Shown here in pieces: positions 4,175 through 64,000 of a DNA stretch of 64,000 nucleotides (position 1 is its first letter; each line of letters starts with the position of its first letter). The DNA is from Naegleria gruberi (taxonomy: Eukaryota), in assembly GCA_000004985.1 (NCBI GenBank), contig GG738859.1; one strand, given 5' to 3'. The position numbers were made by a program, and so were the translations under genes. A model generated the notes under the pieces. It saw nothing but the letters and a program-made list of their open reading frames with translations. It was not told the DNA's origin and did not search any database.

Positions 4175-4768
4175 AAATATTTTAAATAGTGCTGAAATAG
4201 CACAAATGAATAGCATTATATCAAGGATTGTTAAACGAGTTGTAGTTGATAGGAGAATGTTTCATTTCTCAAGAGTATTAAAGAATTCTGCCCATCAGTT
4301 GCATCAATTTGTTCTTCATCTTTCTCACCTCTAGCTAGAGAACATCATTTGAAATTGTCACTCTTAAAATTTCAAATATTTAACAGTTTCTTCATTTGAG
4401 TTTTACAGGGTTACTATTGTTCCTTTCATTTTTAAATAAATCTTAATTATTCCTTTTACAATTAGAAAAGGTTCACTCATATTTGAAATAGATCTATTCG
4501 AATGTGAAAATTAACCATTAATTTAAATAATTATCTCTAATTTACAATGAAACAAATTTTGGATAATGTTTACATTTCGGCTCAATGCTCATCTAGACTT
4601 GGAATAGAGAGGTAATAAAAGAAATCTTCGTGGCCTTTTTCTTCGTTTCTTTACCAGCATCATCTGTCAATCACCATTTAAAAAAAATTCCCTTGCTAGA
4701 GGACACAAAAACTCGAGTACTTGCCAACTCCTTTCCACTACACACCCTCAGCTACTTCTAGACTTTAA

Positions 4769-5743
4769 ATGACTGATCAATCTGTTGACGATTTTGAACT
4801 TTCTGATGATAATTCTTTAAAGATTATTGTTGTTGGTAGGTTTGTGAATGATGAAATATTTGTATTCAAATAACAACCAATAACTAATAACAAAATATTT
4901 AAAAATTAGGTGATGCGAGTGTTGGTAAAACATGCATGTTAATTTCATACAGGTAAGATATTTGGAATTTTTCATATTTAAATTCTTGATTATCCACCAC
5001 ACTTCAACATTATAATGAATGACATGTGTCATCATTGTGCTTTTTAACAACAAATATCATCAACAGTAATAACGAATTTCCAACAGAGTATAACCCTACA
5101 GTATTTGGTTAGTAGTCATTCAAATAATTATAATATTCATAATTCTTTTCTAATTCAATAACAACTTTGATGAATTTTTGAATATACAGACAATTATACA
5201 GCTAACGTAGTTTACAAGGAAAAAACTGTCACATTGGGATTATGGGATACTGCTGGTACTGACGAAGTAAGTAAACATGGTGATGTTCCGTGCCTTTTAA
5301 CATTTGAATAGTATGATCAATTGAGACCGTTATCTTATCCCGACACTCACATTTTTGTTATTGTATTTGATTTAACTAATAAGGATTCACTTGAATCAGT
5401 TACGAAGAAGTGGGTTCCTGAAATTAAAGAACACACTAAAGATAGACCAGGTGGTGTACCATTCATCATTGTTGGAAACAAATTGGACTTGAGAAATGAC
5501 CCAAAGGAAAAGGATAAATGTGTTCCAAGGTGAGTTGATTTTCAATTACAATAATCTAATTGAGATTGTAGATCTGATGGTGAAAAAGTTAAAACAAAGA
5601 CTGGAGCTGCTCGTCTCTTAGAATGTAGTGCCAAGACTCAAGAAGGACTGAAAGATGTATTTGAACAATGCATAGAAGTTGTCATAGAAAACTACATGAA
5701 AAAGAAGAAGGGAGGAAAGAAGGATAAATGTACACTCCAATAA
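4769..5743 (+). CDS. Atypical Rho/Rac-family small GTPase in six exons. Approximate exons: 4769-4835, 4910-4952, 5067-5107, 5190/1-5266, 5312-5529, 5572-5743.
   Basis: Spliced product: MTDQSVDDFELSDDNSLKIIVVGDASVGKTCMLISYSNNEFPTEYNPTVFDNYTANVVYKEKTVTLGLWDTAGTDEYDQLRPLSYPDTHIFVIVFDLTNKDSLESVTKKWVPEIKEHTKDRPGGVPFIIVGNKLDLRNDPKEKDKCVPRSDGEKVKTKTGAARLLECSAKTQEGLKDVFEQCIEVVIENYMKKKKGGKKDKCTLQ. Rho signatures present: the GxxxxGKT P-loop, TVFDNY, the LWDTAG switch II region, NKxD, SAK and a polybasic stretch followed by a CaaX-like CTLQ. There are five GT-AG introns of about 74, 114, 83, 45 and 42 bp. Track ORF 5321..5533 is exon 5. Confidence 0.85.
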
Positions 5744-17035: not shown

Positions 17036-20000
17036 TTACTTCTTTACAGTAAACTTGCTCAACAAGGCCTTGAATTTGGCATTTGTACTTTCCTTCAACT
17101 TGTTCTTGCTGGCATCAACAGCAGCTTCTGGAGCAGGAGTTGATTCAGTTGTGGTAGATGAGCTAGCTCCTGTTGTTGCTGGCTTGCCTCCCTTATTCTT
17201 CTTTTGTCTCTTTCTCTTCTTCTTGGTCTTGCTTTCTGCGGAGGCTGCAGCGGCTGTGGTGGTAGCAGTTGACTCACTTGTTGCTGTTGTTTCAGTGGCT
17301 GCTGAGCTTGAGGCCTCTGTTGATGAAGATGCTTCCTTCTTTTCTTCAGTCTTGGTTTCAACCTTGGCTTCTTGTTTTGTTGACTTGTTCTTCTTCTTCT
17401 TCTTTTTGGCTGGACCTTCATTGCTATCTTCAGAAGTTCTCTTTTTTTCAGCAGTAACCTTGGCCTTAGCCTCAGCAATCTCAGCTCTCTTGTTACGTGC
17501 GACTCTGGCTCTGATTGGTTTTCTTTCAGTGGAGATAGACTTTTCTTCATCCTGCATTTCGTTTGATTCCTCTGTGGTAGATTCCTTCTTTTGGTGTGGA
17601 GTCTTTTGGGAATTATCCCTCTTAGAAGCCTTACTTGGTCTATTTGATTTGTAATCTTCGTTACGATTAGGAGCTCTCTTTGATCCTTGAGTGGTCTTTC
17701 TTGGGAACTTGATTCTGAAATTGTTACTCAAATTGCTCAAATCTTGATCTTCAGACATACTGACAAATCCTCCTACTTGCTTGAATGTACCGAGCTGTCT
17801 AGTGAGTGTGGAAACCAACTTGGCTTTAGGAATTGAATTTGTTGTGACAAATTTGTAAGCATCTTGAATTGGTACTGTAGGTGTACTGAACTTGTAAGCA
17901 GCGACTGATGCCTTTAATTCGCTTGCAACTACTTCACTTCCGAAAACCATTTCATTTGTATCAATCTTTGAGAAAACTCCAGAGAGAAGGGTATCATCAC
18001 CTTTGAATTTTTCTTCCTTTTCAACCTTATCTTCGAGTGTAGAAAGCTTCTTGTTAACTTCTGAATCAACTGCTGTATAAATAACATCGATACCAAACTT
18101 GTTCTTTCTCGATTCTTCTTCAGATAAGAGTGGATCAATTTCCTTAGTGATATTTTTAACCAAATCAAGATCGATGGAAGGTAATAATGATACAGCCTTA
18201 TAAACAATACCAGAAAAGTTACCATCCTTTTCGAATTCCTTTGGGAAGAACTTATCCAACTTTGGATTATTAAGAATGTCAGTGTATGTCTTTGGCAAAC
18301 AAGCTTCCATACTTTCCTTTGGAAGAATGGAGATAAGTTGTTGGTAAGCTGTTAATGGTTCACCCTTTTCAAAAGTAGTAATATCCTTAATGTATTCATC
18401 ATTAATTTCATCATAACAATCCAAAATATCACACATGACAGGAGCATAATGTTCAGGATATCTCCAATACCAAGATGGTGGATCATTGTAGGAATAGTAA
18501 TTGAAAGCCCAAACAATACCACGAAGATATTCTTTAACTAGTGTTTTTCTGAAAAGCAAAGAGGAATCTCCAAATTTCTTATGATAGTATTCTTGATGGA
18601 TTTCATCTGTATATTTCAAAATAATTGAAGTATTAATTTCGTGAATTACTTCTGCAGGATTATAAAAGCAAGCCTTGATCAATTGTTCTGGTTCCTTTAA
18701 TGATCTCAAGTTCTTTTTCTTATGGTTTTTGAAATATTCACGTAAAATCTTGAATACTACCTCAAATGGTTTGTGTGAGGCATTGTTTTTAGAAATTGTC
18801 TTCATCATTTTATCAAATTTGTGCAATTTAAGATTGGAACCAGAATAACAACCTTTCATATCCTCAATGAAAGAAGGTTGTTGATAAATATCTTCTTGTC
18901 TTTGATAATGTCTAATAGTAGAATGATATAATTTAGCAAACATTCCAATTACAGATTCTTCTCTAATTGACTGCATAGCCTTAATCATATTTTTAATATT
19001 GATCATAGAACTATTTGTATAATCGACAAGATAGTGAGGTCTTGGATCAAAATTATCCCCAAGACCAGATTCTTCCATACATTGTAATAAATATTTGGCA
19101 TATGAGTACATGATAATAGAAGCAGCATGGTTGTGCATGACTAGTGAAGGAACGTTTGGCAAAAAGTCATTACCAACAAACATCAAAAGCAGCACAACAT
19201 CTGAAACAAAGTTGGCATTAGACCAATCAATATTTTGTGATTTCGATGATGTGTCTAATTCTGCAATTGAAGAATAGATAACTCTAGCAAAGTGTCTACC
19301 CAATTCAGAAATGTTAAACAATTCTTTGTCTCTCTTATTCATTCTAACATTTTCCGAATCTCTGTAACTGAAAATCTTTGGAAGTCCAATTAAGGATGTC
19401 AACATGATCAAGTCAGCATCCAAACCGTGTACTACATGAAGCATTTCAGAGAATTCCTTACTGTTAATTGCCTTTTCTCTCTTCATATAACTCAAAATTT
19501 TGTGTTCACCTTCTCCAGGAACACTACTGTCACTCACTATCACCTTAATATGTGGGAATTCAGTAGCAATCAATTTAGCAGCTTGGTGAACTGTACTCAT
19601 GCATTTCATCATGAAAGGTGTACCTGGTGAAATTACATTGTGATCCCAGTGATTCTTTTTAGCTTCCATCCTTGCAATAGCAGAGTCCAATAACTTTTCT
19701 CTTTGCTGAATTTTATCCACTTCACTTTCTTTGATTTCCTTAGTCAATTCGTCCTTTTCCTTTGTAATCTCTGATTGAATTCTTCCAATAAATTTAAGTT
19801 TTTGTTCATTTTCACTAATTGCAACAAATCTACGATGACGTTGTTGTTCTTGTTTGGCTGCTGGAGCAACACCATCAACAGCAATATAAAACAAATTATT
19901 AGGTTGCACTGTTCTGGCCAATTGTAACAATTCAGCAGTTATTCGTTTCATCATGTCATCTTCATTCTCAGGTTTCTTTCCTGTTTGAGGATGGCAACAG

Positions 20001-20179
20001 GGGTGAATCAGACCATTCAAATCAATATAGAAATTATCTACACGTTGTTTTAATATATCCTGTACCAGTATTGATTGCTTATTAATTGGATAGACAATTT
20101 TATCATCAGCAGCATCCTTCTTGTCATTGGTGTCGATAACATTAGTTACCAACCAATAAATAAATCCCGGTACACCCAT
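17036..20179 (-). CDS. XRN2/Rat1-like 5'-3' exoribonuclease (1047 aa) with a Lys/Ser/Thr-rich C-terminal tail
   Basis: N-terminus MGVPGFIYWLV...FYIDLNGLIHPCCHPQTG (XRN_N with the Rat1/XRN2-type CCH insertion). It also has IAVDGVAPAAKQEQQRHRRF, GEGEHKIL and LDADLI. The C-terminal roughly 300 aa are K/E/S/T-rich low complexity. The overlapping track ORFs 17055..17654(+) and 17095..17550(-) are frame artefacts of this low-complexity tail. Confidence 0.85.
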   Translation of the reverse strand: MGVPGFIYWLVTNVIDTNDKKDAADDKIVYPINKQSILVQDILKQRVDNFYIDLNGLIHPCCHPQTGKKPENEDDMMKRITAELLQLARTVQPNNLFYIAVDGVAPAAKQEQQRHRRFVAISENEQKLKFIGRIQSEITKEKDELTKEIKESEVDKIQQREKLLDSAIARMEAKKNHWDHNVISPGTPFMMKCMSTVHQAAKLIATEFPHIKVIVSDSSVPGEGEHKILSYMKREKAINSKEFSEMLHVVHGLDADLIMLTSLIGLPKIFSYRDSENVRMNKRDKELFNISELGRHFARVIYSSIAELDTSSKSQNIDWSNANFVSDVVLLLMFVGNDFLPNVPSLVMHNHAASIIMYSYAKYLLQCMEESGLGDNFDPRPHYLVDYTNSSMINIKNMIKAMQSIREESVIGMFAKLYHSTIRHYQRQEDIYQQPSFIEDMKGCYSGSNLKLHKFDKMMKTISKNNASHKPFEVVFKILREYFKNHKKKNLRSLKEPEQLIKACFYNPAEVIHEINTSIILKYTDEIHQEYYHKKFGDSSLLFRKTLVKEYLRGIVWAFNYYSYNDPPSWYWRYPEHYAPVMCDILDCYDEINDEYIKDITTFEKGEPLTAYQQLISILPKESMEACLPKTYTDILNNPKLDKFFPKEFEKDGNFSGIVYKAVSLLPSIDLDLVKNITKEIDPLLSEEESRKNKFGIDVIYTAVDSEVNKKLSTLEDKVEKEEKFKGDDTLLSGVFSKIDTNEMVFGSEVVASELKASVAAYKFSTPTVPIQDAYKFVTTNSIPKAKLVSTLTRQLGTFKQVGGFVSMSEDQDLSNLSNNFRIKFPRKTTQGSKRAPNRNEDYKSNRPSKASKRDNSQKTPHQKKESTTEESNEMQDEEKSISTERKPIRARVARNKRAEIAEAKAKVTAEKKRTSEDSNEGPAKKKKKKNKSTKQEAKVETKTEEKKEASSSTEASSSAATETTATSESTATTTAAAASAESKTKKKRKRQKKNKGGKPATTGASSSTTTESTPAPEAAVDASKNKLKESTNAKFKALLSKFTVKK

Positions 20180-41781: not shown

Positions 41782-42911
41782 TTACGTATAATCAGTTGCA
41801 ATTTCTGCATTGGAATCACTAATGGATTGCATGTGAATATTTTGAACATTTCCAATCTTCTTATTACCATTCTTATAACCTAAACCATGATTTTGATCAA
41901 AACCTTCACCTAATCCATATAAAATACCTATATACTTCTTGTCATTCATGTTATTTTCAAAGAAAACTTTCATCATTTTGAAAAATGTAGCACTTGTCAA
42001 TAAACTATCAGAACCGGCCTGGTGAGCAGGACCAATTCTCCTAAGGCCCAAGTCTTCCGCCAATTGGTTCAATCCTCCTTTCAAAGTATCACAACTCCTC
42101 ATCAAGTATTTAATATCATAAATACATGGGAAAAATGTATGTAATAATTCAAAGAAATCACGTTCAACTTCTGGTAATGGATCATTTGTTAAGAGCTTTA
42201 TCAAATATCCAAAGTCATAAGCACTGTGAAATGATATCCATTTAACATCTTCAGAAAGTACAATACCAGAAGAAATTAACTTTTCTCCAAATGTTTCAAC
42301 ATCAATTCCTTCCTTTTCATGGCTCAAAAATTTGATACCACTATCGGCCAAAAGTTCAATAGAATCTTGTGCATACATATCCTCTTTCAAGTTGAATTTG
42401 AAGTTAAATTGCCAAACACATTGTCCATCATCAGGAACATTTCCTTGCAAATCGGTAAATGTTAATCCGAGTTGAATAACTCTTAACAAGTTAACATTAC
42501 ACTTCAATGTTTGGTAGTGATACTCTGATTGTGTTCTAAAATTACCAACTGGTCTAGCAACTACTCCAGGAAATTCAGTATCCTACAAAATATTTGTAGT
42601 ATTGTGTGTTGATGATGTTGTTGTAGTAGTAGTTAATTTGGTTGTTGTTGTTGTAGTGAATTTTAATTGTTTAAAGATGTATAGTAAACAATTACAGCAA
42701 ATATTGACAATGAATTATTATAATAATAAATTAATAATAATTCACCATTACATACCATTGCTATGCAAGGATACTTTTCAACCATATGTATAATCTTGTG
42801 CATTTCCGTATCTAGATTATGCTTCCAAACATCTATAATTTTAATTTTCGAATCAGGATCGTTTATAGAAGTATTTCTATCGCTAAGCTCTACCAAATTA
42901 TATCCCACCAT
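41782..42911 (-). CDS. CCR4-NOT deadenylase subunit CAF1/POP2 (CNOT7/8-like, DEDD nuclease) in two exons. Exon 1 is about 42756-42911, followed by a roughly 170-bp intron. Exon 2 is 41782-42585.
   Basis: Exon 1: M...KIIDVWKHNLDTEMHKIIHMVEKYPCIAM, then gtatgt...ttttgtag (a GTT/AGT-rich intron). Exon 2: DTEFPGVVARPVGNFRTQSEYHYQTLKCNVNLLRVIQLGLTF...ISFHSAYDFGYL... These match the CAF1 motifs IREVWA.NLE...AMDTEFPG and LLK.IQLG. Track ORFs 42663..42911 and 41782..42507 are the two exons. Confidence 0.85.
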
Positions 42912-43497
42912 TTTGTATTCCTATTTAATATAATAATAATAACTTTCTCCACTTTAACTACTAGAGTGATGATCAAATAATACAATAATCTCCAATATTC
43001 AAAATTGCTATACAACACTGTACTCTGTCCGTCAATATATTAATAACAACACTGTAATGTAGCAAGAATTTTAGACTAGCAACAGAAAATAGGATGGCGC
43101 CAAAAAACTCTCGCGTTGGAAACAATACAAATTTTTGCAATTTGAAAAAAATTAGAAAATTTTTAAAATTAAAATTATTTTGGTCAAACATCGTTAAATT
43201 TTCCTGCTAATACAAAATGTGTTATTTATTGGTGGTTTTTGAGATGAGGTGGTGTTGGATTTGTTTTTTGGGTGATGAGAGTTGTTGTTTGATTATGAAG
43301 GTTGATATGTGTTCAATAAGATCATGAGTTATTTTTACATATAAAGGAAAAAGGAGACGAGTGTTGTTCAAATAAATGGAAGGAGACTAAGGTATTGAAC
43401 CAGTATTGAGCCAACTGAAACTCTCAACAAGAGAACTTTGGGTTAGAGATGATTGGAGAAATGTAATGCCTCTATGGGATACTTATTACTAGAAATG

Positions 43498-45096: not shown

Positions 45097-46187
45097 ATGA
45101 ATTTTATCAATTCCATTACATCAACTCTTAGTGCTATCACTCCAACCCAGTACGGATATGGTGCTCTGGGTTTATTAGGTCTTTATTTTGGCAAGAAATA
45201 TTTCAATGGCGGTACAGTTAGTGCTGATCTGTTGAAGAGTAATCTTTCGGGAAGGATTGTTATTGTTACTGGTGCTTCGATGGGAGGTATTGGTTATGAA
45301 ACATCAAGAGTATTGCATAGTTTAGGAGCTACCGTTATTCTAGTTGTTAGAAATGAACAGGCAGGTAAAGAAGCAAGAGAAGCTATTTCCAAACAAAATG
45401 GACATGCTGACAGATTGGTTGTCATGTTAATGGATTTGACTGATTTGGAATCTGTTAAGAAGTTTGCTCAAGAATTCAAATCTAAATTCAATCAATTGGA
45501 TATTTTGATTAATAATGCTGGAGTTATGGCTTGTCCTCATTCAACAACCAAACAAGGAATTGTAAGTACTATATTGAGCTCTAAAACTAACAGAATTCAA
45601 AGGAAATTCAATTTGGATGCAACCACCTCGGCCACTTCTTACTCACTCTCTTACTTTTGGATATGATTAAGAAATCAAATGGAAAAGTTATTAACTTGTC
45701 ATCCTTGGCAGCTAATTCAAGTGTAAGCTTTGTAAACAAATATGCCACCTTTGCTATGGATACATTGAAAGGTGACTGTAAACAAACTATGTCAACTCAT
45801 TCACTCTACAAGAGATCCAAGCTTGCAAATGTATTGTTCACTAAAAAGTTGAGTAGAGAATTAGCTTTGGATACTACTACCACAGCTCAAACCTATTCTT
45901 TACACCCCGGAGCGGTTAGCACGAATCTCGGACGCTGGCTTGGAAGAGCTGTTACCTTTATCTTAATGACTATCATGTATCCAATCATGTGGTTCTTGTT
46001 AAAATCAGCTCACCAAGGTGCTCAAACAACTCTTCATCTCGCCCTTTCTGATAAATCCAAGTTAAAACCTGGAAGCTATTACAGTGATTGCCATGAAAAT
46101 ATTGGAAATCCATGTGAAGATTCAATTGAATTACAAGATCGTTTGTGGAATAATAGTATTGAAATTTGTAAAAAATATCTTGAGTAA
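45097..46187 (+). CDS. Short-chain dehydrogenase/reductase (retinol-dehydrogenase/WWOX-like SDR) in two exons separated by a 32-bp GTAAGT...CAG intron (45562-45593)
   Basis: The cofactor motif TGASMGGIGYETSR, LDILINNAGVM and, after splicing, TKQGI|NSKEIQFGCNHLGHFLLTLLLLDMIKKSNGKVINLSSLA reproduce the classical RDH-type block ExQFGxNHLGHFLLTxLLLD. The two track ORFs (45097..45666 and 45657..46187) are in different frames and are joined exactly by removing 32 nt. Confidence 0.75.
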
Positions 46188-49967: not shown

Positions 49968-52093
49968 TCAGTCATTCTTTATCTTGAACGAGCTCTTTTC
50001 CAATGCCTGTTCAATACATGCTTTCAATAAAGATCGTTGGCAAGGTTTAATAATCACAGAGTCAAATATTTCAGAAGGGGGCTCTACAAGCACATCTCCT
50101 GTTAGTGCCACTACTGAAATTGAGTCTTTGAACTTTTCCCTCAATATAGTAGCAGCTTCAATACCATCCATTACTGGCATGTTCTGTCTATTGTTGATTA
50201 TTATAGTATTTTAATGACACTTACCAAATCCGTAATGACTAGTTTATGTTGTTTAGGATCCACTGCATCAACCAACTCCTTTCCATTACAAACACTCTCT
50301 GTTTCATAACCAAGACTTTCGATCAGCTTAACAATTACTTTTCTATTAATTGGATTATCATCTGCAATTATAATCTCTGTTCTTTTTGTTGGTTGTGTAT
50401 TTTCTTGCAAGGTTGGTTCTGTGAACAGTCTAAAATAATTCTCGTGAAAGACCATTTGTCGCTTAAGAGAAGTATCGGCATCTTCCTGTAGCTCAGTTAC
50501 ACAGTCACCAACCACAATTTCCAATGGAAGAGTAATTGTGAACTCACTTCCTTTATCAATTTCAGATTTTAATGAAATAGTTCCACCCATTGAATTCACA
50601 TGACTCGATACAATATTTAAACCCAATCCAGAACTATGTAATATTTCTAGCCAAACATTCAAATCTAGATTACTTACCCTGGATAAATATTTTCATTCAC
50701 ATTGTGCAATTGAGAGAATGGAGCAAAAATCTCCCTCTGCTTGTTCTTGGGAATGCCAGAGCCCAAGTCTATAACCTTAAACTCAATTTCCTGTTGTAAA
50801 ATTCCATGATTAGTTTGGGGTTCTCCGTTCGCTTTGCAGATTAAATTAACAGTTTGTCCATTCTTAGAAGCCTTAATAGCGTTAGTTAGCAAGTTAGAGA
50901 GAATTTGGTGAATCCTAGTTTGACTAGTTCTCACATTCAAGTTTTGTGTAATAGAATCCATTAATATTTCCAATTTAACATTAAAATGTTTAGAATAGCT
51001 ATTAATGATTGCCCCAATTAATTGAATACATTTTCCTAAATTAAATACATTTACAATGGTATTCTTGAAATTTTCCTTCTTTTCATGTTCAAATCTTGCT
51101 ACAGTTAGAATGTCCTCGATTAAGTTCAATAGTATTCCATCAGAGGAGGCAATAGTTTCAACTAGCTCTCTCTGTTCACATGTCAGATTAGTTTCTCTCA
51201 ACAACTCTACACTGCCCAGGCTACTCAAACATGGTGAACGAAATTCATGGCTATTACATTTTCAACATTTCTCCTTAATGATAATAAACTTACCTGATGT
51301 GTCTAAGGAATGTTTGTTTAGTTGAGAGAGCTTCCTCTAATTTTTCTCTAGTCTTCTCAAGGGTCCTCACTTTTTGTTTCAAATTTTCTGATGTTGTCAT
51401 TACATGAAAACTCAATATCAGAATAGAAAGGACAATTCCTGAATTTTCACAAAAGTATGTAATGGAATCCAGTGTAAATCCATATCTAGCTAGCTCCAAA
51501 ATTGCACCTCCCAAGTGTAAAATACACGAATAATAGATTGGTATGAGAGAATAAATCTTGTACTCTTTCGAAAGGTTGTTAGTACTCATAATAATGCACA
51601 GATAAATTGGCAGGATAATAATTTTAACCTTGCCCACAAATATGAATCTGACAGTAAAAGCCAACAAGCTAATGAGAATTCTCTTCCTCTCACTTGCCAT
51701 GGTTGTCTCAATATCTGTCTGTTGGTCAGAGATGGAATAGGAGATGTACTTTCTACTTGCAGTTGACCCAATTACACAAGCAATAAGCAGAATAACATTG
51801 GCCTCCCACTCCAATGCATAATATCCATATAAACCCAATATTAAATATTGAAATAATAAAACAATAGGTACCAAATGAACCGAAGTGATAGTTCTATAGA
51901 GAATCCTTTCAAGATTTTTCATCCATGTTTTGTCAGTATCTCCAAAATTAATCTTTAGTCCAATAAGTGGATCAATCCGTAACACTCTGTAAGATGAAGA
52001 AGATGTTGATGTAGTTTTGTTGATATCCACGTTCCCCGAGGAAGATGTATCGCTTACACATTCAATATCAGTATTATTATCCAGAGCCAACAT
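49968..52093 (-). CDS. Hybrid sensor histidine kinase (TM sensor region + HisKA + HATPase_c + receiver), about 665 aa, four exons. Approximate exons: 52093-51294, 51250-50678, 50633-50225, 50183-49968.
   Basis: Exon a encodes several TM helices and a coiled coil ending ...TFLRHI. Splicing across a 43-bp gtaagt...aatag intron gives the H-box SHEFRSPCLSSLGSVELLRETNLTCEQRELVETI. Exon b carries the N-box and G-boxes (ILSNLLTNAIKASKNG...VIDLGSGIP...). A 44-bp intron follows. Exon c continues SGLGLNIVSSHVNSMGGTISLKSE... and starts the receiver: EIIIADDNPINRKVIVKLIESLGYETESVCNGKELVDAV...LVITDL. After a 41-bp intron, exon d completes it with NMPVMDGIEAATILRE...VVALTG...IIKP. Track ORFs 51290..52093, 50674..51228, 50201..50662 and 49968..50180 are the four exons. 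Confidence 0.85.
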
Positions 52094-52765: not shown

Positions 52766-54724
52766 ATGTTTATGAATAATAGTTTACCTACATCATCAGA
52801 GAGGGATTTTGATAGTAAAGAAAAACAAATTAGTGCTCAATATGCTAATTTATTGCAACGATCGAATAGATACTTCTCCGGGCTGAGGTTTGTTTTTATT
52901 GTTTGATTATCAATTTAATAATATATTTAATATTTGATTGTGTGTGCATTATAACTGATTACAGAGAACTTCCACAAACTGGACAAAGAAAAGTGTGGGA
53001 GCCATACTTTCGAAAGACATTCGAAGTATTCACACAACTGTGGAAATATCAATTGGAACATCGTTCTGTTTTGGAGAAGAAGGCCAATTTGAAGAGGTTT
53101 GAAATTGGTGAAATTGCATCACGTATTGGTCAACTCTATTACTTGTACTAGTAAGTGTCTATTCTTCATGATGATCGACTAATCGTATAAAAACAGTTTA
53201 AGAACAGGTGATATCAGATATGTCTATGAATCCTATAGATTTTATGAAGCAATTCATACAAGACAATATTTCAAAAATATTGAAAGAGAAGACAATGCTC
53301 AACTTTATCACGGAATGCTCAGATATTATGCTAGATTTATTGTTGTTTGTTTACTAGTTAACAAACGACAAATCATTTATGAAATTTTACCGGAATTTAA
53401 AGATAATGTCAGCAATTATTTAACACATTTTAATATTGGTGGAAAAGGAGGAGAGGAATGGGAATTGCTCATTAATGAACTTGAAAACTTTTTAAAAGCC
53501 GAAACGAGTGTTACAATCGATCAAGCTGTTGATCTAATTAACTATAGATCAGCTGTTCAATTTCCAAAATCTAAAAGTAGAAGAAACAATATACCTAATT
53601 ATTTATTTGATAATCGAAGTGGCAACAATACGCCTTCTTCCTCAGATGATTCATCACCATCCGATATTACTTCTCCTGTTGAGGAAACAATATTTTCACA
53701 AATGACAAGTTCAAATTATATTGTCAAAATTTCAGATGCCATATTGATGACAAACAGAAAATCAACAGTCAAATTCAGTGAATTAACCTTGGATGTTTTT
53801 AGAATTATACAATCATTGGAAAAGAATTCACTCAACGAGAAGCAAGCATCCATTCGTAAAACCATGCTCTACAGACCAACTGTTTCCGAAATGTTAGCAA
53901 GCTTATCGAGTAGTGTGGATATTTCTGAGAGTGTTGACACCACCCAAAATACCAATTTTGCTAATTTTATTTACATTTCGGCTGATGGAGCCAAAGGAGG
54001 AGTTTCACTAAATTCCAAGAGAAGAAGCAATCAACAATATTCTTTCGATGAAGAGTTATCGACAGAGACTAGCCATTTTATGGATCCTAACAGCCTTACA
54101 ATAGATGACATTTTGCCATTCACAAGAAAGCCACTATTTTTAGTTGTTGAAAGTGAGAATTCAACATCTCTAATGGTAAGTAACTATTTTGATATTATCA
54201 TTTATTCTAATTTGAAATAGCCAAAACATAATAGATTCCCATCCTGCTTTGTTTGTTTATTCTCCCCTAAACTTTACGTCTCTCATCTCTCCAATACCTC
54301 AATGATTGGATCCTTCTTTACACACTTCCTTGCATCACCAATTCTTGCCTTGTGCACGTTGACAAAGTTGGAAAGTGTGAAAAATATTGAAAAGAATGTT
54401 TATAGAGAATGTGAGAGTATTTTAATTAATTCCTTTACCGAGATGCACAAGATTCTCTCTCAAGATGACGATTTGGATATTTCACTCAAACTATATTTGG
54501 AAAATGAAACAACGAGACTTTACATTTTGAGGTTTATTCTTTGCAGATTTTTATTGGAAACTTACCTACGTGCTAATAGTGAACTCGTTTTAGGGCATCA
54601 CTTGCATTCATTCCTCCCAACTTCCTATCCAACTATTCCACACGTTTCACAGGACGTATTAACCAAGACTGTCACTCAAATTCTTGAAAGATTGGAGATT
54701 GACTCGAAACTTTTTGATATTTAA
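52766..54724 (+). CDS. SCAI (suppressor of cancer cell invasion)-like transcriptional cofactor homologue in four exons. Approximate exons: 52766-52887, 52965-53150, 53197-54175, 54221-54724.
   Basis: The spliced protein has ...ISAQYANLLQRSNRYFSGLR|ELPQTGQRKVWEPYFRKTFEVFTQLWKYQLEHRSVLEKKANLKRFEIGEIASRIGQLYYLY|YLRTGDIRYVYESYRFYEAIHTRQYF... This closely parallels the conserved SCAI N-terminal block (F.YLLDKSKQLFNGLRDLPQYGQKQWQSYFGRTFDVYTKLWKFQQQHRQVL...KRWQIGEIASKIGQLYYHYYLRTSETSYL). Introns are about 77, 46 and 45 bp, all GT-AG. Track ORFs 52709.., 52903.., 53315.. and 54302..54724 are the exons. Confidence 0.7.
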
Positions 54725-54735
54725 TTTATTAAAAT

Positions 54736-55971
54736 TTATAATTTACTTGCTCGCATAACCTTTTGAATACCTTCTCTGATAGGCACTCTTGGAGAATAGC
54801 CCAAGTCTCTCTGGGCATTACTCAAATCAAAAGTGGCACTTCTAGAAATGGTAGCAACTGCATATCTAGAAAGAGGTGGGTCTCTATCATAAATACCTAA
54901 CAAGGAAAAAACACATTCAAAAATATATCCAATAAAGTAAGCGAATGTAAAATTGATCTTCTTGGGAACAAAAGTATCAGGTCCAGTCTTTTTCTCATAA
55001 TTCAAATCAATGTTCAAATAGTCCTTACTCAATTCCTTACATAATTTATGTAAATCCAATGGTTCTCCATTTGTGATATTGTAAGCCTTTCCCAAACACT
55101 TGTCTCTCTTGTAGGCTAAAAGCAGAGCATCAACAACATTATCGATATAAGTCAAATCAATCAAAAGTGGTTTGTCCTTCTCTGAAATATTTACAAATCT
55201 TCTCTCACGTAAAACTTGAGTAATTCTTGGTAAAATTGCAGTATCATGAATTCCAATTACTGCACGTGGCCTTATAGAAACTACTGGGAACTGATGCTCT
55301 CTATACAAACTCAAAATAAATTGTTCAGCCATATACTTGGTCTTGGCATATTCATTCAACATGTTTTCCATTTTCAGTGTTTCATCATTATTCTCACTAA
55401 CATTATACAAATGTTCCCTACTCATATAAATAGAGGGTGTTCCAACAAATACAAATCTACTCAATTTCTTATTTTTCTTATAGTGAGCGAGTGCCAAATT
55501 GGCCAAATTCATTGTACCTTGAACATTTGCCTTGTATAAATCAGTAGCTCTAGCCCATGAAGTCGACAAGGCTGCACAATGGAAAATCACATCAACACTC
55601 GACAAGATTGGATCTAATAATGTATTAACACTCTCCGAATCACTAATATCACACTTGATAAACTCAACATTTAAATACTTGTTTTCCAATTCACTGCCAA
55701 TCGTGACATTTCTTCCGAGAATGATAATTTTTCCAAAATCTTTTTCTATTGATGATAATAAATTATTAATATCATCATTGCTATTATTTTCATTTTGTTT
55801 GATCTTGTTTGATGATGTTTGGACAGTTAATTGTTTTGGTTTGGCAATTCTTTCACAAAGTACTCGACCAACATGTCCCGTGGCTCCAGTAATGAGTGCT
55901 GTTTGCTTCTTGTTGTCTGCTGTTTCATCGACAGTCGTACTACCAGATGGCAGGATATCATGACAGGACAT
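54736..55971 (-). CDS. NAD(P)-dependent epimerase/dehydratase, 3-beta-hydroxysteroid dehydrogenase-family protein (411 aa)
   Basis: ATG ORF with a Rossmann motif ALITGATGHVGRVL that is interrupted by an N/S-rich insertion. It also has FHCAALSTSWARATDLYKANVQGTMNLANLA (a YxxxK catalytic dyad) and an extended-SDR C-terminal substrate domain. Confidence 0.65.
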   Translation of the reverse strand: MSCHDILPSGSTTVDETADNKKQTALITGATGHVGRVLCERIAKPKQLTVQTSSNKIKQNENNSNDDINNLLSSIEKDFGKIIILGRNVTIGSELENKYLNVEFIKCDISDSESVNTLLDPILSSVDVIFHCAALSTSWARATDLYKANVQGTMNLANLALAHYKKNKKLSRFVFVGTPSIYMSREHLYNVSENNDETLKMENMLNEYAKTKYMAEQFILSLYREHQFPVVSIRPRAVIGIHDTAILPRITQVLRERRFVNISEKDKPLLIDLTYIDNVVDALLLAYKRDKCLGKAYNITNGEPLDLHKLCKELSKDYLNIDLNYEKKTGPDTFVPKKINFTFAYFIGYIFECVFSLLGIYDRDPPLSRYAVATISRSATFDLSNAQRDLGYSPRVPIREGIQKVMRASKL

Positions 55972-57774: not shown

Positions 57775-58625
57775 TCCGTTTTACAGTATTTCCAGTAAAC
57801 AGATTCTCCTTGATGATCGATGTTTTTAGCCTTTTTGTCTTTTCAGTTAAAACCGTAGTTGAATGTATGTGAAAAATGTTTTGTAAATTAAATTAATCTT
57901 TAATCGTTTTTTGCTTTAAAAGTTGTCACTTGCAAGGCTTGATGGGTCAATTATTTTCTCAGAATATACAAGCCTAATCCATTTCAAGACAAAACCATTA
58001 TTTTTTGCCAAGAAAAAGGAAAGCTTGTCATTTGTTTGGTATTCACAATAGAATAGACTAACACTTCTGTTGCATCAACTATATTGTTGAATTATTGTTG
58101 TGATGAATAATTACAACACTATGTTGTGCACATACTGTTGTGTGATTAACTGTTATGATTTAATATTTCTATCGTCCATCTCCTGTCCAAGCCACTGCAC
58201 AAATATGAACAACATGAGAATTCAATGTAGCGGCTTTTTCGCACTTGTTGATGCAAAAATTTCATTCAACAACCCTTCTAAAGGACAAGCATAGGCTTTC
58301 TTGTTTTAGGAACGCGCACATAACAACAAAAAAATTAAACCCTTCAAGTCAATAGTGTGTGGAGTTCGTTCTGTCAGCGCGCCATATCATCAACAGTGGC
58401 CAACAGAAAAAGCAGCGAATTATTTTCATCATCATCAACGATACACATCATCATCACTAATAACAACAATAATAATTATATTATTGGATAAATATTGTTA
58501 GCACTGCAACAACAACAAGATTAACGTTTGCTACCTGATCAGTAGTAGTAACACAGGATCAAAGAAGTCAATACTTTTTGTCGGCAACAACAAACAAAAG
58601 AAACCTTGTGGGAACAATCTTTACC

Positions 58626-61349
58626 ATGTTGTCATCATCGACGATAAAACAACAAGCCATACCACCCTTTCATAATCATACGGAATTTTCTTCTCATCTT
58701 CGAATAATTGCAGAGGTTGATAAACACTCTAATAAGACAAAGTTGTATCTATACTCAATGCTGTCTAAGAACAAGATAGTCATCACACCTGATGTCCCTA
58801 AAACCATTAGTGAATTTAGAGATGAACATATGGATGTAGGCATGGTGTTTGCAGTTGTGGGCACATCTTGGTGCGGTAAATCGACTATTGCCAATGTGGC
58901 CAGACAATTATTTGGACCAAAGTATGGTCGTAATGAGAAGGCAGTTTTTGGTGATCTGATACGAGGTTCTATTGTCAAGTCCTTCTCTCAACTCTTAAAT
59001 TGTCTCAGAAACTTTTTGGACCAAGAAGATTTTGTTAAAGAGCATCAACGCACCATTCATGATAGGTTAATAGAGTTAAAGATCTTTAAACTTAAAAAGA
59101 GTTTGCAAACACCAAACTTTACATCCTCTGGTTGCGAGCCTAGAGGTCTCCACAGTGAATATGAAGCTCAGAAGAGTACAATAATAGCAACACCAATAAT
59201 GAAAGAGGAATTTGAACAATTGAAACGAGAATTGATTCAATATTTTGCTGAAAGAAATGAGGTTATAGATCGATCACTTGATATTCATTCAGACGTAAAT
59301 CGTGTGGTGAAACTCTTAGAGAGCTTATGGAACGACCCTATTGTACAAATTGTCTATGCCCTAAATCATAGAATTCCTAATCTCAACGTATCAACTAACC
59401 TAGATTACTGGATACCAAGACTTAAAAAGATTTTCTCAGCTGGCTTTTCTCCTAAATCTAAAGACATTCTCCAATCCCACCCAGGCCATAATGGTATCTA
59501 TGCCCATCATCCTATGGAATGCAAGTTTCCAAAAAATCAAACTGAGACTGTGACTGAAATTCCACTCTTTGAAGCTAAGGAAATACCATTTGTAGTGTTG
59601 GATGTTACAGACGTTAGTCGTAAATTGGAACATGTTATAGATCTTGTAACAGATATTGTATTTGTAGTTTCTATGGATGACTATTATCTTATAGACGAGA
59701 GAAATATGGACAGATTATCTGATGCCATTCAAAAATTTAGAAAACTTTGCGAGGACATGAAAGAAAGCTTCTTATCGAGAAGAATTCCACTCAAAAACAT
59801 TACACTTGTTTTTAACAAGTTTGATATATTTTCAGACAAGGCCTCCAAATCTGAGGACCCTTTTATCAAGTTAGAAACATCCCACCCAGATATTTATACT
59901 TATTATGGTACTGATTCAGGAGCTTCCCAGCACCTTATCAGGTCCCTCATTGACTATTTTGTAAACATTTACGATTCATACTTTAGAGATATAAGAGAAT
60001 TTCCAATAAGCAAACATCAAATTGAAACTTATAGACTAACATCGAGTTTACTGGCTGGTACTATACTGAACATTTGTGTAACATCTGCCACTAACAAAAG
60101 TAACATGGAAGATTTTTGGAGATTTGTGATTGGTCGTGAAAAAGGCGTTGAGCAACGTTCTTATTGTACAGACGGTTCATGGATACCGTTCAGAATGTGT
60201 AGATCATCTCTTCATGAGCAGTATGGAATCTCTTACCTTAATTGGGGAGAGAACTTCTTCATACATGGTAATAACCAACCATTTAGATTTGCTGTGCACG
60301 AAAGCCTTCTCTTACTGAGATGTCCACAGCTGGCTACTATAATAGGGTTAAACGAGAAGAACAAGAAGGCTGTAAATACTTATGAACCAGTTCCAACAAT
60401 AATGGTGGACTTTGATGTTGGTGTTTTAGCCGAATTGATACGGAGGATTTATGATGGCTTTAGTGTTTTTGATTTACAAAAATTCATTCAACACTATCCT
60501 TCTCTCCTTCCTGTTGTTATCAAGAAGCCAAAGAAGCTAACCAAAAAACCAAAGCTACTTCGACCAGTTATTCTAAAATACAAAATGATCAAGGCAAAAA
60601 CTATTAACAAGAACATTATATATAGATTTAACCATCCTCAATTTACTGATATAGTTAACTATGTTGACTTGATTGGAAATAATTTTTCTGCCCTCTCTGG
60701 TAGACATGACATGCTGTTATTCCACCAAAGTGATAACATTTCGAGTTGCAAGTTCATGCTATCGATGAGATTGCCAGGATTCACTCTTGAGAAAGATTAC
60801 TATGTACTTGTTCCATATATCAAAAAGCCCTCATATTTTAATGTTTTGAGAATACTTAACCACGAACGAGACGTTTGCATTGATAACTGGAAAGAGCTGA
60901 TAGAAATGATTTTCATCAGCAAAATGTGGCAGTTTGAAGACGATTCTATATTAGTAGAGACTTTGAGAAAAATGTTTAAAAATGTAGTTTCAGCTGATAA
61001 TGTTCACCAAATGATTCCACTGTTGTCAAATGACTTTATAGATTTCTCTCAACTTGATGACCCTGTACAAGGCAAGGTTTCAGAGAGAACCCTTCTAGAT
61101 AACCTACCAACAGAAATAATCTATGTTGTGTCTTCCTTTTTGTATGGTGTCTTTGATACAAATCCACAAAACTCTCTAATTGATCAAGACTACTTGAGTC
61201 TTATTTGTTGCCTGAATCATACCTCCTTCTTTAGGTTCTTTAAAGAGATTCCTAAGGACAAACTCAAACAATTTATTTGGAAAACTAAGTTTACCAAATT
61301 TACCCTATTTTTGAAAGAGTGTAATTCTTTCCTAGAAAAACACAAATAA
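58626..61349 (+). CDS. Highly divergent G-protein alpha-subunit-like protein with a roughly 480-aa C-terminal extension (about 908 aa). Catalytic-site residues are not conserved.
   Basis: G-alpha-like blocks: the Walker A/P-loop VVGTSWCGKSTIANVARQLFG (G-alpha has [20 protein letters not shown]) and a helical-domain-sized insert. Then a switch region: ...TVTEIPLFEAKEIPFVVLDVTDVSRKLEHVIDLVTDIVFVVSMDDYY (G-alpha has RVKTTGIVE...[36 protein letters not shown]). The NKxD box is in LVFNKFDIFSDK (G-alpha has LFLNKKDLF). The switch-I Arg and Thr and the switch-II Gly-Gln (DVGGQ becomes DVTDV) are replaced. No ATG occurs for about 330 bp upstream of 58626. The 480 aa beyond the G-alpha-like domain have no match I recognise. 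Confidence 0.6.
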   Translation: MLSSSTIKQQAIPPFHNHTEFSSHLRIIAEVDKHSNKTKLYLYSMLSKNKIVITPDVPKTISEFRDEHMDVGMVFAVVGTSWCGKSTIANVARQLFGPKYGRNEKAVFGDLIRGSIVKSFSQLLNCLRNFLDQEDFVKEHQRTIHDRLIELKIFKLKKSLQTPNFTSSGCEPRGLHSEYEAQKSTIIATPIMKEEFEQLKRELIQYFAERNEVIDRSLDIHSDVNRVVKLLESLWNDPIVQIVYALNHRIPNLNVSTNLDYWIPRLKKIFSAGFSPKSKDILQSHPGHNGIYAHHPMECKFPKNQTETVTEIPLFEAKEIPFVVLDVTDVSRKLEHVIDLVTDIVFVVSMDDYYLIDERNMDRLSDAIQKFRKLCEDMKESFLSRRIPLKNITLVFNKFDIFSDKASKSEDPFIKLETSHPDIYTYYGTDSGASQHLIRSLIDYFVNIYDSYFRDIREFPISKHQIETYRLTSSLLAGTILNICVTSATNKSNMEDFWRFVIGREKGVEQRSYCTDGSWIPFRMCRSSLHEQYGISYLNWGENFFIHGNNQPFRFAVHESLLLLRCPQLATIIGLNEKNKKAVNTYEPVPTIMVDFDVGVLAELIRRIYDGFSVFDLQKFIQHYPSLLPVVIKKPKKLTKKPKLLRPVILKYKMIKAKTINKNIIYRFNHPQFTDIVNYVDLIGNNFSALSGRHDMLLFHQSDNISSCKFMLSMRLPGFTLEKDYYVLVPYIKKPSYFNVLRILNHERDVCIDNWKELIEMIFISKMWQFEDDSILVETLRKMFKNVVSADNVHQMIPLLSNDFIDFSQLDDPVQGKVSERTLLDNLPTEIIYVVSSFLYGVFDTNPQNSLIDQDYLSLICCLNHTSFFRFFKEIPKDKLKQFIWKTKFTKFTLFLKECNSFLEKHK

Positions 61350-61451
61350 ACACAAACCTAATTTATTTTGTCACAGTGTTTTGGTATTCCTCTTTTTGGA
61401 AAATAAATTAATCTAATTATAACTTTTACATTTAAAAAAATAAGTGATGGA

Positions 61452-64000
61452 ATGAAAACGATCATTGTCAGGTTCGAAGACATCACAATACCTCCTAAAG
61501 TGTTGGAAAAGTCATTCAATGATTGGGAACACTTGGCACCTTTTGAATTGTTTGAAGAATTGCAGAAATATCTTCGGGATGAATGTTTTATTCATGTACA
61601 CCAATTTTCAAAGATGATACTAAAATCGGAGGATAATGAGTATGAAATATCATCTCGTATTGTTCATCAAGTTGGCAATGTACAACTGTCAATCCAAAAT
61701 TATTATATTTCATGGTATAACTTATTCGACAAGGAAATTAGAGTTAGACTTTGTCCACTTTATCACCAACAAGAAGAGGATTCTATCGTTCCAACCGATG
61801 AAGTGTGTTTGCATTTGGGTTGTCACTCATTTACAGAAAGACAATTGTTAGAGGTGAAGGAATCGGAATTAATTGAAGAAAGGAGAGGCTATTTGTGTTA
61901 CTTATTGCAAGTAATATTTGAGGATGGAAATCATGTTGCTTCTTCTTCTGTTAAAATAGATCAATCCTACCTCATGGATACATTAGAAAAGTTTCCTACA
62001 GAGTTTGAGGCTTTTTGTAAATGGCTCATTGTTAACAAGTTGAAGAGAACAAGAGCCTATTTGAAGGAAGATCGTTATATTATTGTAAATGGAAGATATG
62101 AAATGTGCTTTCACTTAATACATGGAGGAAGATTAAGTAATCCACTCAACAATACTTCGAACGAAAGTAATGAAAGAAATCAACTGTGGATTGGGAAAGA
62201 TTTTAAAAACAAGTGTAAGGTAGTTATGAAATTTGGAATCAGAACTGAAAATGAGTTTGAAAATCTACAAAAAATCAAACATAGTCATATTATTCAAACT
62301 TTAGATCATTATCCCTCTAATGAAATACAGGAAAATGCTTTTGTTACTTTTCTATATAAGGGGCTCAATTTGAGACAACTTATTGAATCAAAGGATAATA
62401 ACCTCACATTTAAAGAAATTAGAGAAATTGTATCGCAAATTGTTGATGCCATTGCTTATCTTCATGATATGGGAATAGTTCACAAAGACATCAAACATGA
62501 AAATATTCTTATTGAGGAAAATTTGGACAAGATTTGGCTTGTAGATTTTGATGAGAATTCGTATTCAGGTGGTTGTACAATTTTTTTAAATCAACCTCCA
62601 GAAAAAGTATTATCCATGAAAGCAGATATTTGGGCATTAGGGGTACTTGTCTACCAATTAATAACAAAAGATCTGGAGACTAATATTCAAAAAGATTTTC
62701 TCAGTGGACGCATACAGATTGGACATCATATTGACATTCTAATTGAACAATCAAATGATACTAATCTCCAAACGTTAGCGAAGATTGTAAGAACGTGTTT
62801 ACAAGAAAAACAATCAAGACCCACAATATATGGGATTTATGAAATATTGTATGAAGAAGAACTTGAATTATTGGAAGACATAGAATTTGAAAGTGATATT
62901 GATGAAGAAATAGATTTATCAGAAATTGATAGGGATGATTTGATATCTCAACTATCTACTAATGGAATGAAATTGAGATATATTCCTTATTCAAACCAAG
63001 ACATGGAAATGGTAACAGCAGCTGTCAACTGTAATTGTAATGCACTGGAGTTTACCTCACCTTTATTGAAAGAGTCAGATGATTTCATTGATAGCATCCA
63101 AATACCTCCAGAGTGTGTAAAGTTGTTAGGAGTTGATAAGCAAATACGAATCATTAAGAAAGAACCATCCCTCTTCCATAGTTATAGACAACTAGTTCTA
63201 CAAGCTGTAAAGCACGACAGCTCACTTTTTCATCATTTAACAGAAGAATTGAAGAGTGACTCTGATATTTTTATTGTAGCCATCGAGAATGGATTGGAAA
63301 ACTATGAGCAATACTTGAAATATCATGCATCTTCCAAAAGTGTGGCATTGGTTGTGGTCGAATTATATCCCTCTCAACGAGAGCACTTTATTTACGATGT
63401 TTTTGAGGAAATTTATAAGGATCATTTGGATGCAATTAACAAAAACCCATTAGAATTGAGAAAAGCACCAAAACCCTTAAAGTCTTATTCTGATTTTGTA
63501 ATACAGATAGCTAAAAAGCAAATAGGCGTTCTAGAGTTTGCTTCTGATATTCTAAAATCAGATAGAAATTCATTTTAGAAGCTTCCAAGATATCACTTAG
63601 TGCTTTACAATATGCCAGTGCGAGTCTTCAATCAGATGAAGAGTTTATTGATAAAATATACAAAATAAGATGTCACGATCTGGATGCTTATCAATTAACT
63701 GGAGAAGAGAAAGAAATTTTCATGATTGCTATCTCAGGAAGGTTTAGTTTTATTCCTGAAAAATTCAAGAAGGACAGAGCTTTTGTTATGAAAGTACTGA
63801 AGAAAAGGGGAAGGATTCTAGAGTATATTCCTCACTTTTCATCTGATAAAGAGGTTGTTATGGCATCCATAATGCATTACTCATACGATCTTGAGTATGC
63901 AGACTATTCTTTACGTTCAGATGAAGAAATTGTACTGTTGGCAACCACATTGAATGGTGAGTGTTTTAGATACGCAGATTCAAAACTACAGGAAAATAGA
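61452..64000 (+). pseudogene. Protein kinase + DUF4116-repeat protein, interrupted by a 1-bp frameshift at about 63565-63575. The ORF is open to the window end in the shifted frame, so either a sequencing indel or a recent pseudogene.
   Basis: Kinase subdomains are present: K in VVMKFG, HKDIKHENILI, DFDE in place of DFG, a PPE/APE-like motif and DIWALGVLVYQL. The Gly-rich loop is degenerate. DUF4116 repeats follow (ALEFTSPLLKESDDFI, LQAVKHDSSLFHHLTEELKSDSDIFIVAIENG, VLEFASDILKSDRN...). The track ORF ends ...KSDRNSF* at 63578. The +1 frame continues FILEASKISLSALQYASASLQSDEEFIDKIYKIRCHDLDAYQLTGEEKEIFMIAISGRFSFIPEKFKKDRAFVMKVLKKRGRILEYIPHFSSDKEVVMASIMHYSYDLEYADYSLRSDEEIVLLATTLNGECFRYADSKLQEN to position 64000. 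These are more DUF4116 repeats. Inserting one T in aaTTca (giving DRNFILEAS) restores a single ORF. Confidence 0.6.

Follow-up and report, generated by a model that had tools for sequence, protein, structure and literature searches.

A G-alpha-like protein with degenerate switch motifs and a predicted tandem BTB extension in Naegleria gruberi

The 64-kb stretch of contig GG738859.1 of Naegleria gruberi (assembly GCA_000004985.1) that was analyzed here, referred to below as the window, carries at 58626..61349 on the plus strand a complete coding sequence of 907 amino acids (aa) and a stop codon, for which no intron is needed. The open reading frame (ORF) that contains it spans 58578..61349 on the same strand, and its first ATG lies at 58626. 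The encoded protein is identical across 907 residues (100%) to N. gruberi XP_002678998.1 (EFC46254.1, UniProt D2VA66, locus NAEGRDRAFT_47887), whose public annotation is merely “predicted protein”. It consists, in this order, of a G-alpha-like domain, a first BTB domain (BTB1), a Lys-rich linker, a second BTB domain (BTB2) and a conserved helical tail (residues 815-907). The features of the gene are as follows, together with the evidence used to place them.

58626..58838, plus strand: N-terminal 71 residues, unmatched by positions 1-20 of the G-alpha model; sequence read directly
58839..60134, plus strand: G-alpha-like domain (Ras-like and helical), residues ~72-503; Pfam PF00503, PDB phmmer search, BLASTP against GNAI1
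58860..58886, plus strand: G1 P-loop GTSWCGKST, G79-T87; canonical GAGESGKST, with GxxxxGKS/T kept
59463..59498, plus strand: switch I (G2) remnant DILQSHPGHNGI, D280-I291; canonical DVLRTRVKTTGI
59499..59579, plus strand: insertion of ~20 aa behind switch I (YAHHPMECKFPKNQTETVTEIPL), specific to N. gruberi; alignments
59598..59618, plus strand: switch II (G3) remnant LDVTDVS, L325-S331; canonical FDVGGQR, with the Asp kept
59814..59825, plus strand: G4 motif NKFD, 397-400; N397, K398 and D400 invariant across 9/9 aligned sequences
60081..60092, plus strand: G5 motif TSAT, 486-489; canonical TCAT, with A488 invariant
60243..60521, plus strand: BTB1, residues ~540-632, core FRFAVHESLLLLRCPQL...LAELIRRIYDG; hhalign, PDB profile search, Pfam match in the metagenome protein P0007 described below
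60522..60704, plus strand: Lys-rich, weakly conserved linker (KKPKKLTKKPK...), residues ~633-693; low predicted local distance difference test score (pLDDT)
60705..61043, plus strand: BTB2, residues ~694-806; AlphaFold model of residues 689-907 and structure search
61068..61346, plus strand: C-terminal helical tail, residues 815-907; conservation, helices in the model

Fold and profile place the protein in the G-alpha family, and the residues and termini that serve catalysis and coupling in that family are missing from it. The Pfam G-alpha model PF00503 matches residues 72-465 with 134.3 bits (E=6.9e-39; gathering score 48.8), and the match, which spans model positions 21-313 of 333, thus includes the helical domain. 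In a single-sequence PDB search with phmmer, all matches are chains of Gt, Gi and Gq. The P-loop (79-87) and switch I (280-291) are separated by some 190 residues, in which the inserted helical domain lies, and LWNDPIVQ pairs with LWKDSGVQ of Gi/Gt at the LWxDxxIQ helical-domain signature. Assignment to another family of P-loop NTPases was rejected, as NCBIfam yields generic Walker-A noise alone and no competing family; the G-alpha identity that an earlier note on this DNA had proposed, with a profile search as its check, is thereby borne out. Beyond the orthologues described below, the 1.84 billion representatives searched give generic G-alphas at ~30% identity with E values of at least 1e-6, and thus no closer canonical paralogue.

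Motif positions were taken from BLASTP against human GNAI1 and from aligning the protein in MAFFT with GNAI1, GPA1 of Arabidopsis and G-alphas from databases, the GNAI1 and GPA1 comparison sequences being entered by hand. In canonical G-alphas, Arg178 and Gln204 stabilize the transition state of GTP hydrolysis, Thr181 and Ser47 coordinate the Mg2+ ion, and the amide of Gly203 senses the gamma-phosphate. The elements GxxxxGK[ST], N397, K398, D400 and A488 are common to the family and to canonical G-alphas in the alignment, while the P-loop has Ser and Trp in place of the canonical Gly42 and Glu43. In switch I, Arg178 is replaced by His (His285), Thr181 by His (His288) and Thr182 by Asn; in switch II, the GGQ is gone, the loop is 3 residues shorter and the subsequent Trp has become Leu. 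Neither the RxxT of switch I nor the DxxGQ of G3 is therefore found in the N. gruberi protein. These readings agree with the earlier note, which had reported a retained GxxxxGKST P-loop, helical-domain spacing and NKxD box next to a replaced switch-I Arg/Thr and DVGGQ.

The two ends of the G-alpha-like domain are altered as well. At the protein start (MLSSST), reading of the sequence revealed no Gly2/Cys lipidation signal for myristoylation or palmitoylation. At the other end, the alpha5 helix comes after G5 and continues directly into the C-terminal extension, so that alpha5 is followed by ~400 residues and has no free C-terminus. Residues 1-71 contain a short motif common to the orthologues (I-[PV]-P-[FL]-[FH] ... 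HL) and have no family match. Inside the gene, an antisense ORF of 94 aa (58694-58978, minus strand) is without support and most likely spurious.

The C-terminal extension, put at ~480 aa in the earlier note and described there as being of unknown function, measures ~400 aa when counted after about residue 503 (past alpha5), and two BTB domains were identified in it by profile and predicted structure. In the case of BTB1, hhalign of its sub-profile against four canonical BTB domains (SPOP, KEAP1, BCL6 and PLZF, entered by hand) gives a probability of 88% and E=3e-6, with the beta2-alpha1-beta3-alpha2 core as the aligned part. When a five-sequence profile of the C-terminal region was compared with the PDB, the top 22 of the 23 matches were SPOP and KEAP1 BTB chains, at marginal E values of 0.02-1.2. 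The segment of the more conservative metagenome protein P0007 that corresponds to N. gruberi residues ~545-625 matches the Pfam BTB model (PF00651) with 32.7 bits (E=8.8e-8; gathering score 20.5), and a BTB domain is also present among the precomputed annotations of P0007. Pfam searches with the C-terminal 437 aa of the N. gruberi protein and with both halves of it separately returned no matches.

By sequence, BTB2 looks BTB-like by eye, a PDB profile search gave chance matches only, and hhalign comparisons with BTB1 and with the canonical BTBs were not significant, so that this domain is assigned by structure prediction. The AlphaFold model of residues 689-907 (pLDDT 71, predicted template modeling score 0.72) has the beta-sheet and helical bundle of the BTB fold. 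A Foldseek search with this model places the KEAP1 BTB at the top (probability 0.95, E=0.07) and, after it, Skp1 and Elongin C, which have the same fold as BTB. The longest structural alignments of the BTB2 region, covering 112-122 residues, are with SPOP, KBTBD2, KLHL22, KEAP1 and KLHL11; these top structural matches are all BTBs of the cullin-3 (Cul3) adaptor type, in which extra helices run into a 3-box.

Behind BTB2, the tail has two conserved motifs, L-L-D-x-L-P-x-[DE] (LLDNLPTE in N. gruberi, with L..LP invariant) and WKTK. The L..LP resembles the start of an F-box or a 3-box, and the tail is possibly a 3-box/BACK-like or F-box-like element. A tail profile compared with the PDB gave only chance matches, and reading LLDxLPxE as an F-box brought no significant score: the N. 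gruberi protein has no match, and P0007 has a partial one (E=0.06, 13.5 against 24.3 bits). The tail is ~35-45 residues longer in the Willaertia orthologue and P0007 than in the Naegleria proteins. No internal repeats were found in the C-terminal region, nor paralogous copies within the 64-kb window. A C-terminal profile run against an index of 5.8 billion proteins returned family members only, so that no other architecture with this module can be detected.

Exhaustive search of the 1.84 billion representatives revealed a small family in which the entire architecture is seen again in N. fowleri, N. lovaniensis, Willaertia magna and P0007. Its members are FDP41_000149 of N. fowleri (905 aa, 45% identity), ABK040_010113 of W. 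magna (1064 aa), P0007, which is a JGI metagenome protein of 863 aa, and the N. lovaniensis orthologue, present as two gene models (C9374_006103 and 006104) that are split by one assembly frameshift. Further members are short environmental Naegleria-like fragments, one of which, 351 aa long, represents the 90% cluster; two metagenome scans brought no additional relatives. Public names of these proteins are “predicted protein” or “hypothetical protein”. The split N. lovaniensis copy lies on PYSW02000026.1 in the 9866-10000 region, with annotated parts of 233 and 625 aa.

Orthology is established by shared neighboring genes. Upstream of the G-alpha-BTB gene, N. fowleri, N. lovaniensis and Willaertia all have a minus-strand LRR_9 gene, as does the N. 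gruberi window; in N. fowleri and N. lovaniensis a small Ras/Roc gene, which has no match in the window, is found between LRR_9 and the orthologue. Downstream, N. fowleri, N. lovaniensis and Willaertia have a minus-strand gene and a thioredoxin gene, the former being CCDC113-like in N. fowleri and N. lovaniensis and without a recorded Pfam match in Willaertia. With full-length orthologues in three other species and upstream synteny kept, the idea of a misassembled or fragmentary copy, raised in the earlier note as a way in which its proposal could fail, finds no footing. In Willaertia, a G-alpha gene of canonical length (352 aa, with G-alpha and Arf matches; 3514-4841, minus strand) lies ~5 kb upstream of the G-alpha-BTB orthologue, and this neighbor might be tied to the origin of the fusion or might be a coincidence.

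Purifying selection acts strongly on both halves of the protein. In the comparison of N. fowleri with N. lovaniensis, the G-alpha part has a ratio of nonsynonymous to synonymous substitution rates (dN/dS; Nei-Gojobori, dS ~0.4-0.6) of 0.07, and the C-terminal BTB part one of 0.10. This selection is visible on both sides of the N. lovaniensis frameshift, which is probably an error of assembly or annotation, since it is a single frameshift in an otherwise wholly conserved ORF.

The family also suggests an order for the motif losses. Willaertia has DILNTRIPTSGI (TRIPTSGI) as switch I and DIAGER as switch II, P0007 has DILRSRVKTTGI (SRVKTTGI) and DVGSER; both keep the Arg and the Thr, and both have a switch II of full length, yet the catalytic Gln is already Glu. 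None of the three Naegleria species retains the catalytic Arg, the Mg-binding Thr, the GGQ or the switch-II Trp, and their loop is shortened. G1, NKxD and the G5 Ala are kept by every family member that covers those positions. As the fused proteins of Willaertia and P0007 keep Arg and Thr, the BTB fusion came before the decay of the switch, which proceeded stepwise after fusion, with Arg and Thr lost within Naegleria. To judge by these motifs, selection preserves the guanine-binding pocket and the fold, and not catalysis.

The reading favored here, held tentatively and at a little under an even chance, is that of a guanine-nucleotide-binding, non-cycling pseudo-GTPase tied to modules for BTB dimerization and, probably, for Cul3 adaptation, a function that we infer from the features above. 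Because the G1, G4 and G5 boxes are intact, the G-alpha-derived domain most likely still binds guanine nucleotide, and it would neither hydrolyze GTP nor sense its gamma-phosphate. G-beta-gamma contacts of G-alpha are made by switch II and alphaN, while insertion into the receptor is a matter of the free alpha5 C-terminus. Since the protein has no lipid anchor, its residues 1-71 are unlike alphaN and its alpha5 is buried in the fusion, receptor coupling and canonical G-beta-gamma binding are unlikely, and a receptor-coupled heterotrimeric switch is not what its sequence would suggest. Instead, the frozen G-alpha domain may be a module with a fixed role in protein binding or autoinhibition. The BTB domains are predicted to dimerize the protein and would probably dock it to a Cul3 ligase, and G-protein-pathway partners bound to it, the putative substrates, would thereby be scaffolded or ubiquitinated.

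As the tandem BTBs are most like Cul3-adaptor BTBs, a dimeric scaffold or Cul3 substrate adaptor would be the most economical model, the adaptor role being suggested by the structural resemblance of the BTBs. A more specific form of the model makes the pseudo-GTPase the substrate-recognition or regulatory head of a Cul3 (BTB) ubiquitin ligase, in a “G-alpha-BTB” class that converged on RhoBTB; this is conceivable but doubtful. If it were true, the expanded Naegleria G-protein network (G-beta-gamma, RGS and effectors) would be wired directly to ubiquitination, and the series from Willaertia to Naegleria would show step by step how a functioning switch became a fixed binding module.

Several points weigh against the pseudo-GTPase and Cul3-adaptor reading. 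The Pfam BTB model does not match the N. gruberi protein at E<=10 at either BTB. BTB1 was assigned with a five-sequence profile and comparison sequences entered by hand, and BTB2 with a medium-confidence model built from five sequences, for which no Foldseek E value falls below 0.07; a longer AlphaFold model (residues 504-907) was unusable, with a pLDDT of 45. Many BTB domains merely oligomerize and never bind cullin. Finally, the Trp and Ser of the P-loop and the lost Thr might abolish nucleotide binding entirely.

Canonical G-alphas, such as GNAI1, GPA1 and N. fowleri G-alpha1-7 (PMC9283941), share with the window protein the Ras-like and helical fold, the G1, G4 and G5 motifs and LWxDxxIQ; unlike them, the window protein lacks the catalytic Arg, the Thr, the Gln, a lipidation motif and a free alpha5, and it has the BTB extension in addition. 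The N. fowleri survey describes 13 G-alphas and calls the switch-II Trp “universally conserved” (PMC9283941); the N. fowleri orthologue probably lies outside that set, since it has no switch-II Trp.

The extra-large G proteins of plants (XLG1-3) likewise combine a G-alpha-homologous domain that has degenerate catalytic motifs with a large extra region, and they are thought to act without a GTPase cycle (PMC8584482). However, their extension is N-terminal, Cys-rich and equipped with a nuclear localization signal, and their family is plant-specific, whereas the window protein has a C-terminal extension made of tandem BTBs and belongs to a heterolobosean family. The likeness to XLGs drawn in the earlier note is thus a fair functional analogy as regards the non-cycling mode, and does not extend to kinship, the extension being C-terminal and BTB-type; the degeneration is independent of that of XLGs and convergent.

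The same design as in the window protein is seen in RhoBTB and Dictyostelium RacA, in which an N-terminal GTPase domain is followed by a linker, two BTBs and a conserved C-terminal region, and no lipid anchor is present. The GTPase domains of RhoBTB are themselves atypical or non-hydrolyzing. RhoBTB has a Rho GTPase domain, the window protein a G-alpha domain instead, and in sequence the BTB parts showed no detectable relationship to RhoBTB. The window protein does have tandem BTBs and then a conserved C-terminal region, as RhoBTB has, and the likeness is best described as an analogous, independently assembled architecture and not as membership. RhoBTB and RacA proteins, like the window protein, are about twice the ordinary size of their family; the BTBs of RhoBTB and RacA have been linked to cullin-3 (PMC8305917, also the source for the design given above).

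For N. gruberi, ~44 G-alphas have been reported, and catalytic-motif deviations occur in G-alphas of Naegleria, Dictyostelium and plants (PMC8584482). The window gene is presumably one of the N. gruberi G-alphas with deviant motifs, and as such motifs have already been reported, degeneracy alone does not make a Naegleria G-alpha new. The survey source for degenerate G-alphas of Naegleria and Dictyostelium is, according to PMC8584482, Anantharaman et al. 2011 (Gene 475:63). No literature description of a G-alpha-BTB fusion was found, the survey of Anantharaman et al. 2011 lying outside the scope of that search. The present analysis adds the tandem BTB module and a family of heterolobosean orthologues, which is under purifying selection and in which the switch was lost stepwise.

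G-alphas are textbook receptor-coupled switches, and the cycle-free XLGs changed the understanding of G-protein signaling beyond animals. The window protein would be an independent non-cycling case, joined to a new fusion partner, from a protist lineage that diverges deeply and to which the pathogen N. fowleri belongs; its tandem BTBs point to coupling with a ubiquitin ligase or a scaffold, and its orthologue series may be regarded as a natural experiment in which a GTPase turns into a pseudo-GTPase. The practical value is modest: “predicted protein” labels are mended, and a G-alpha-like gene that apparently lies outside the biochemical survey of N. fowleri is flagged.

Two other readings concern the same domains. 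The BTBs might only homo- or hetero-oligomerize, as in KCTD or BTB-zinc-finger proteins, and thus yield a multivalent G-alpha-like platform that involves no ubiquitin ligase; the conserved helical tail behind BTB2, and longest structural matches that are all Cul3-adaptor-type BTBs with helices toward the 3-box, argue against such a pure scaffold, which we regard as unlikely. Alternatively, the G-alpha part could pair with G-beta-gamma independently of nucleotide, in an unconventional heterotrimer, with the C-terminus adding only localization or partners. Here, too, G2 and G3 are degenerate and the general G-alpha fold is kept, as in plant XLGs, which bind G-beta-gamma and RGS proteins regardless of nucleotide (PMC8584482), and an XLG-like protein of Sphagnum (P0013) is among the search matches at E=1.3e-5. 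This match (27% identity) is, however, no better than those of ordinary G-alphas, the extension is at the opposite end and BTB-type rather than Cys-rich, switch II, which makes the main contact with G-beta, is shorter and altered in sequence, and residues 1-71 neither resemble the alphaN of the G-alpha model nor offer a lipid-anchor signal. An XLG-like mode of action is therefore rather unlikely, and it would be compatible with the pseudo-GTPase and Cul3-adaptor reading if the bound cargo were G-beta-gamma.

The two remaining explanations have far less in their favor. That the gene is a decaying, non-functional G-alpha paralogue, a pseudogene-like relic, would fit the loss of several catalytic residues and the frameshifted N. 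lovaniensis copy, but the ORF of 907 aa is intact, orthologues are kept across the Naegleria-Willaertia divergence and dN/dS is 0.07-0.10 in both halves, which makes this explanation extremely improbable. A two-gene module, co-regulated or physically interacting, has also been considered, on account of the features that follow the gene:

61350..61451, no strand: AT-rich intergenic spacer of 102 bp, before the kinase gene
61452..63578, plus strand: neighboring gene for a protein kinase with 4 DUF4116 repeats, adjacent only in N. gruberi

The earlier note was correct in placing this kinase gene on the same strand at a distance of ~100 bp, but the functional pair that it saw hinted at there is unsupported, since the adjacency is specific to N. 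gruberi: no kinase was found within 10 kb downstream of the orthologue in N. fowleri, N. lovaniensis or Willaertia, despite the upstream LRR_9 gene being kept, and nothing in the window matches the genes that N. fowleri has downstream. Moreover, genes are tightly packed throughout the window, short spacers being the rule, and eukaryotic neighbors are not operons. The closeness to the kinase gene looks accidental, and a module of the two is very improbable.

The window as a whole is N. gruberi nuclear DNA, 64 kb long with ~34% G+C, and contains dense long ORFs, mostly without introns. Its genes include those for a kinesin, two XRN exonucleases, MOR2/PAG1, EFTUD2, kelch and Sel1 proteins and a hybrid histidine kinase. 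The RGS-START protein that the earlier note had placed in the window (ORF 2249-4174, plus strand) was not confirmed, as its RGS match is below threshold (21.5 against 23.9 bits) and no START domain was found at E<=5; this RGS-like gene, 55 kb away, is irrelevant to the G-alpha-BTB gene, given the ~44 G-alphas reported for the genome (PMC8584482). Relative to N. fowleri, the window has the SCAI-epimerase block in inverted orientation (regions 41800-42950 and 52900-55400), and the CAF1 gene lies ~14 kb from the LRR_9 and G-alpha-BTB pair. The two XRN-type 5'-3' exonuclease paralogues (11479-14385 and 17036-20179, both on the minus strand) are 2.6 kb apart, and the one at 11479-14385 has a PITH domain (residues 488-663) inserted between XRN_N and XRN_M, which is unusual. 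The hybrid histidine kinase (HisKA, HATPase_c and response-regulator receiver; 50201-51228, minus strand) occupies two adjacent ORFs, a split that implies a short intron or a frameshift, and a short-chain dehydrogenase at 45097-46187 is similarly split.

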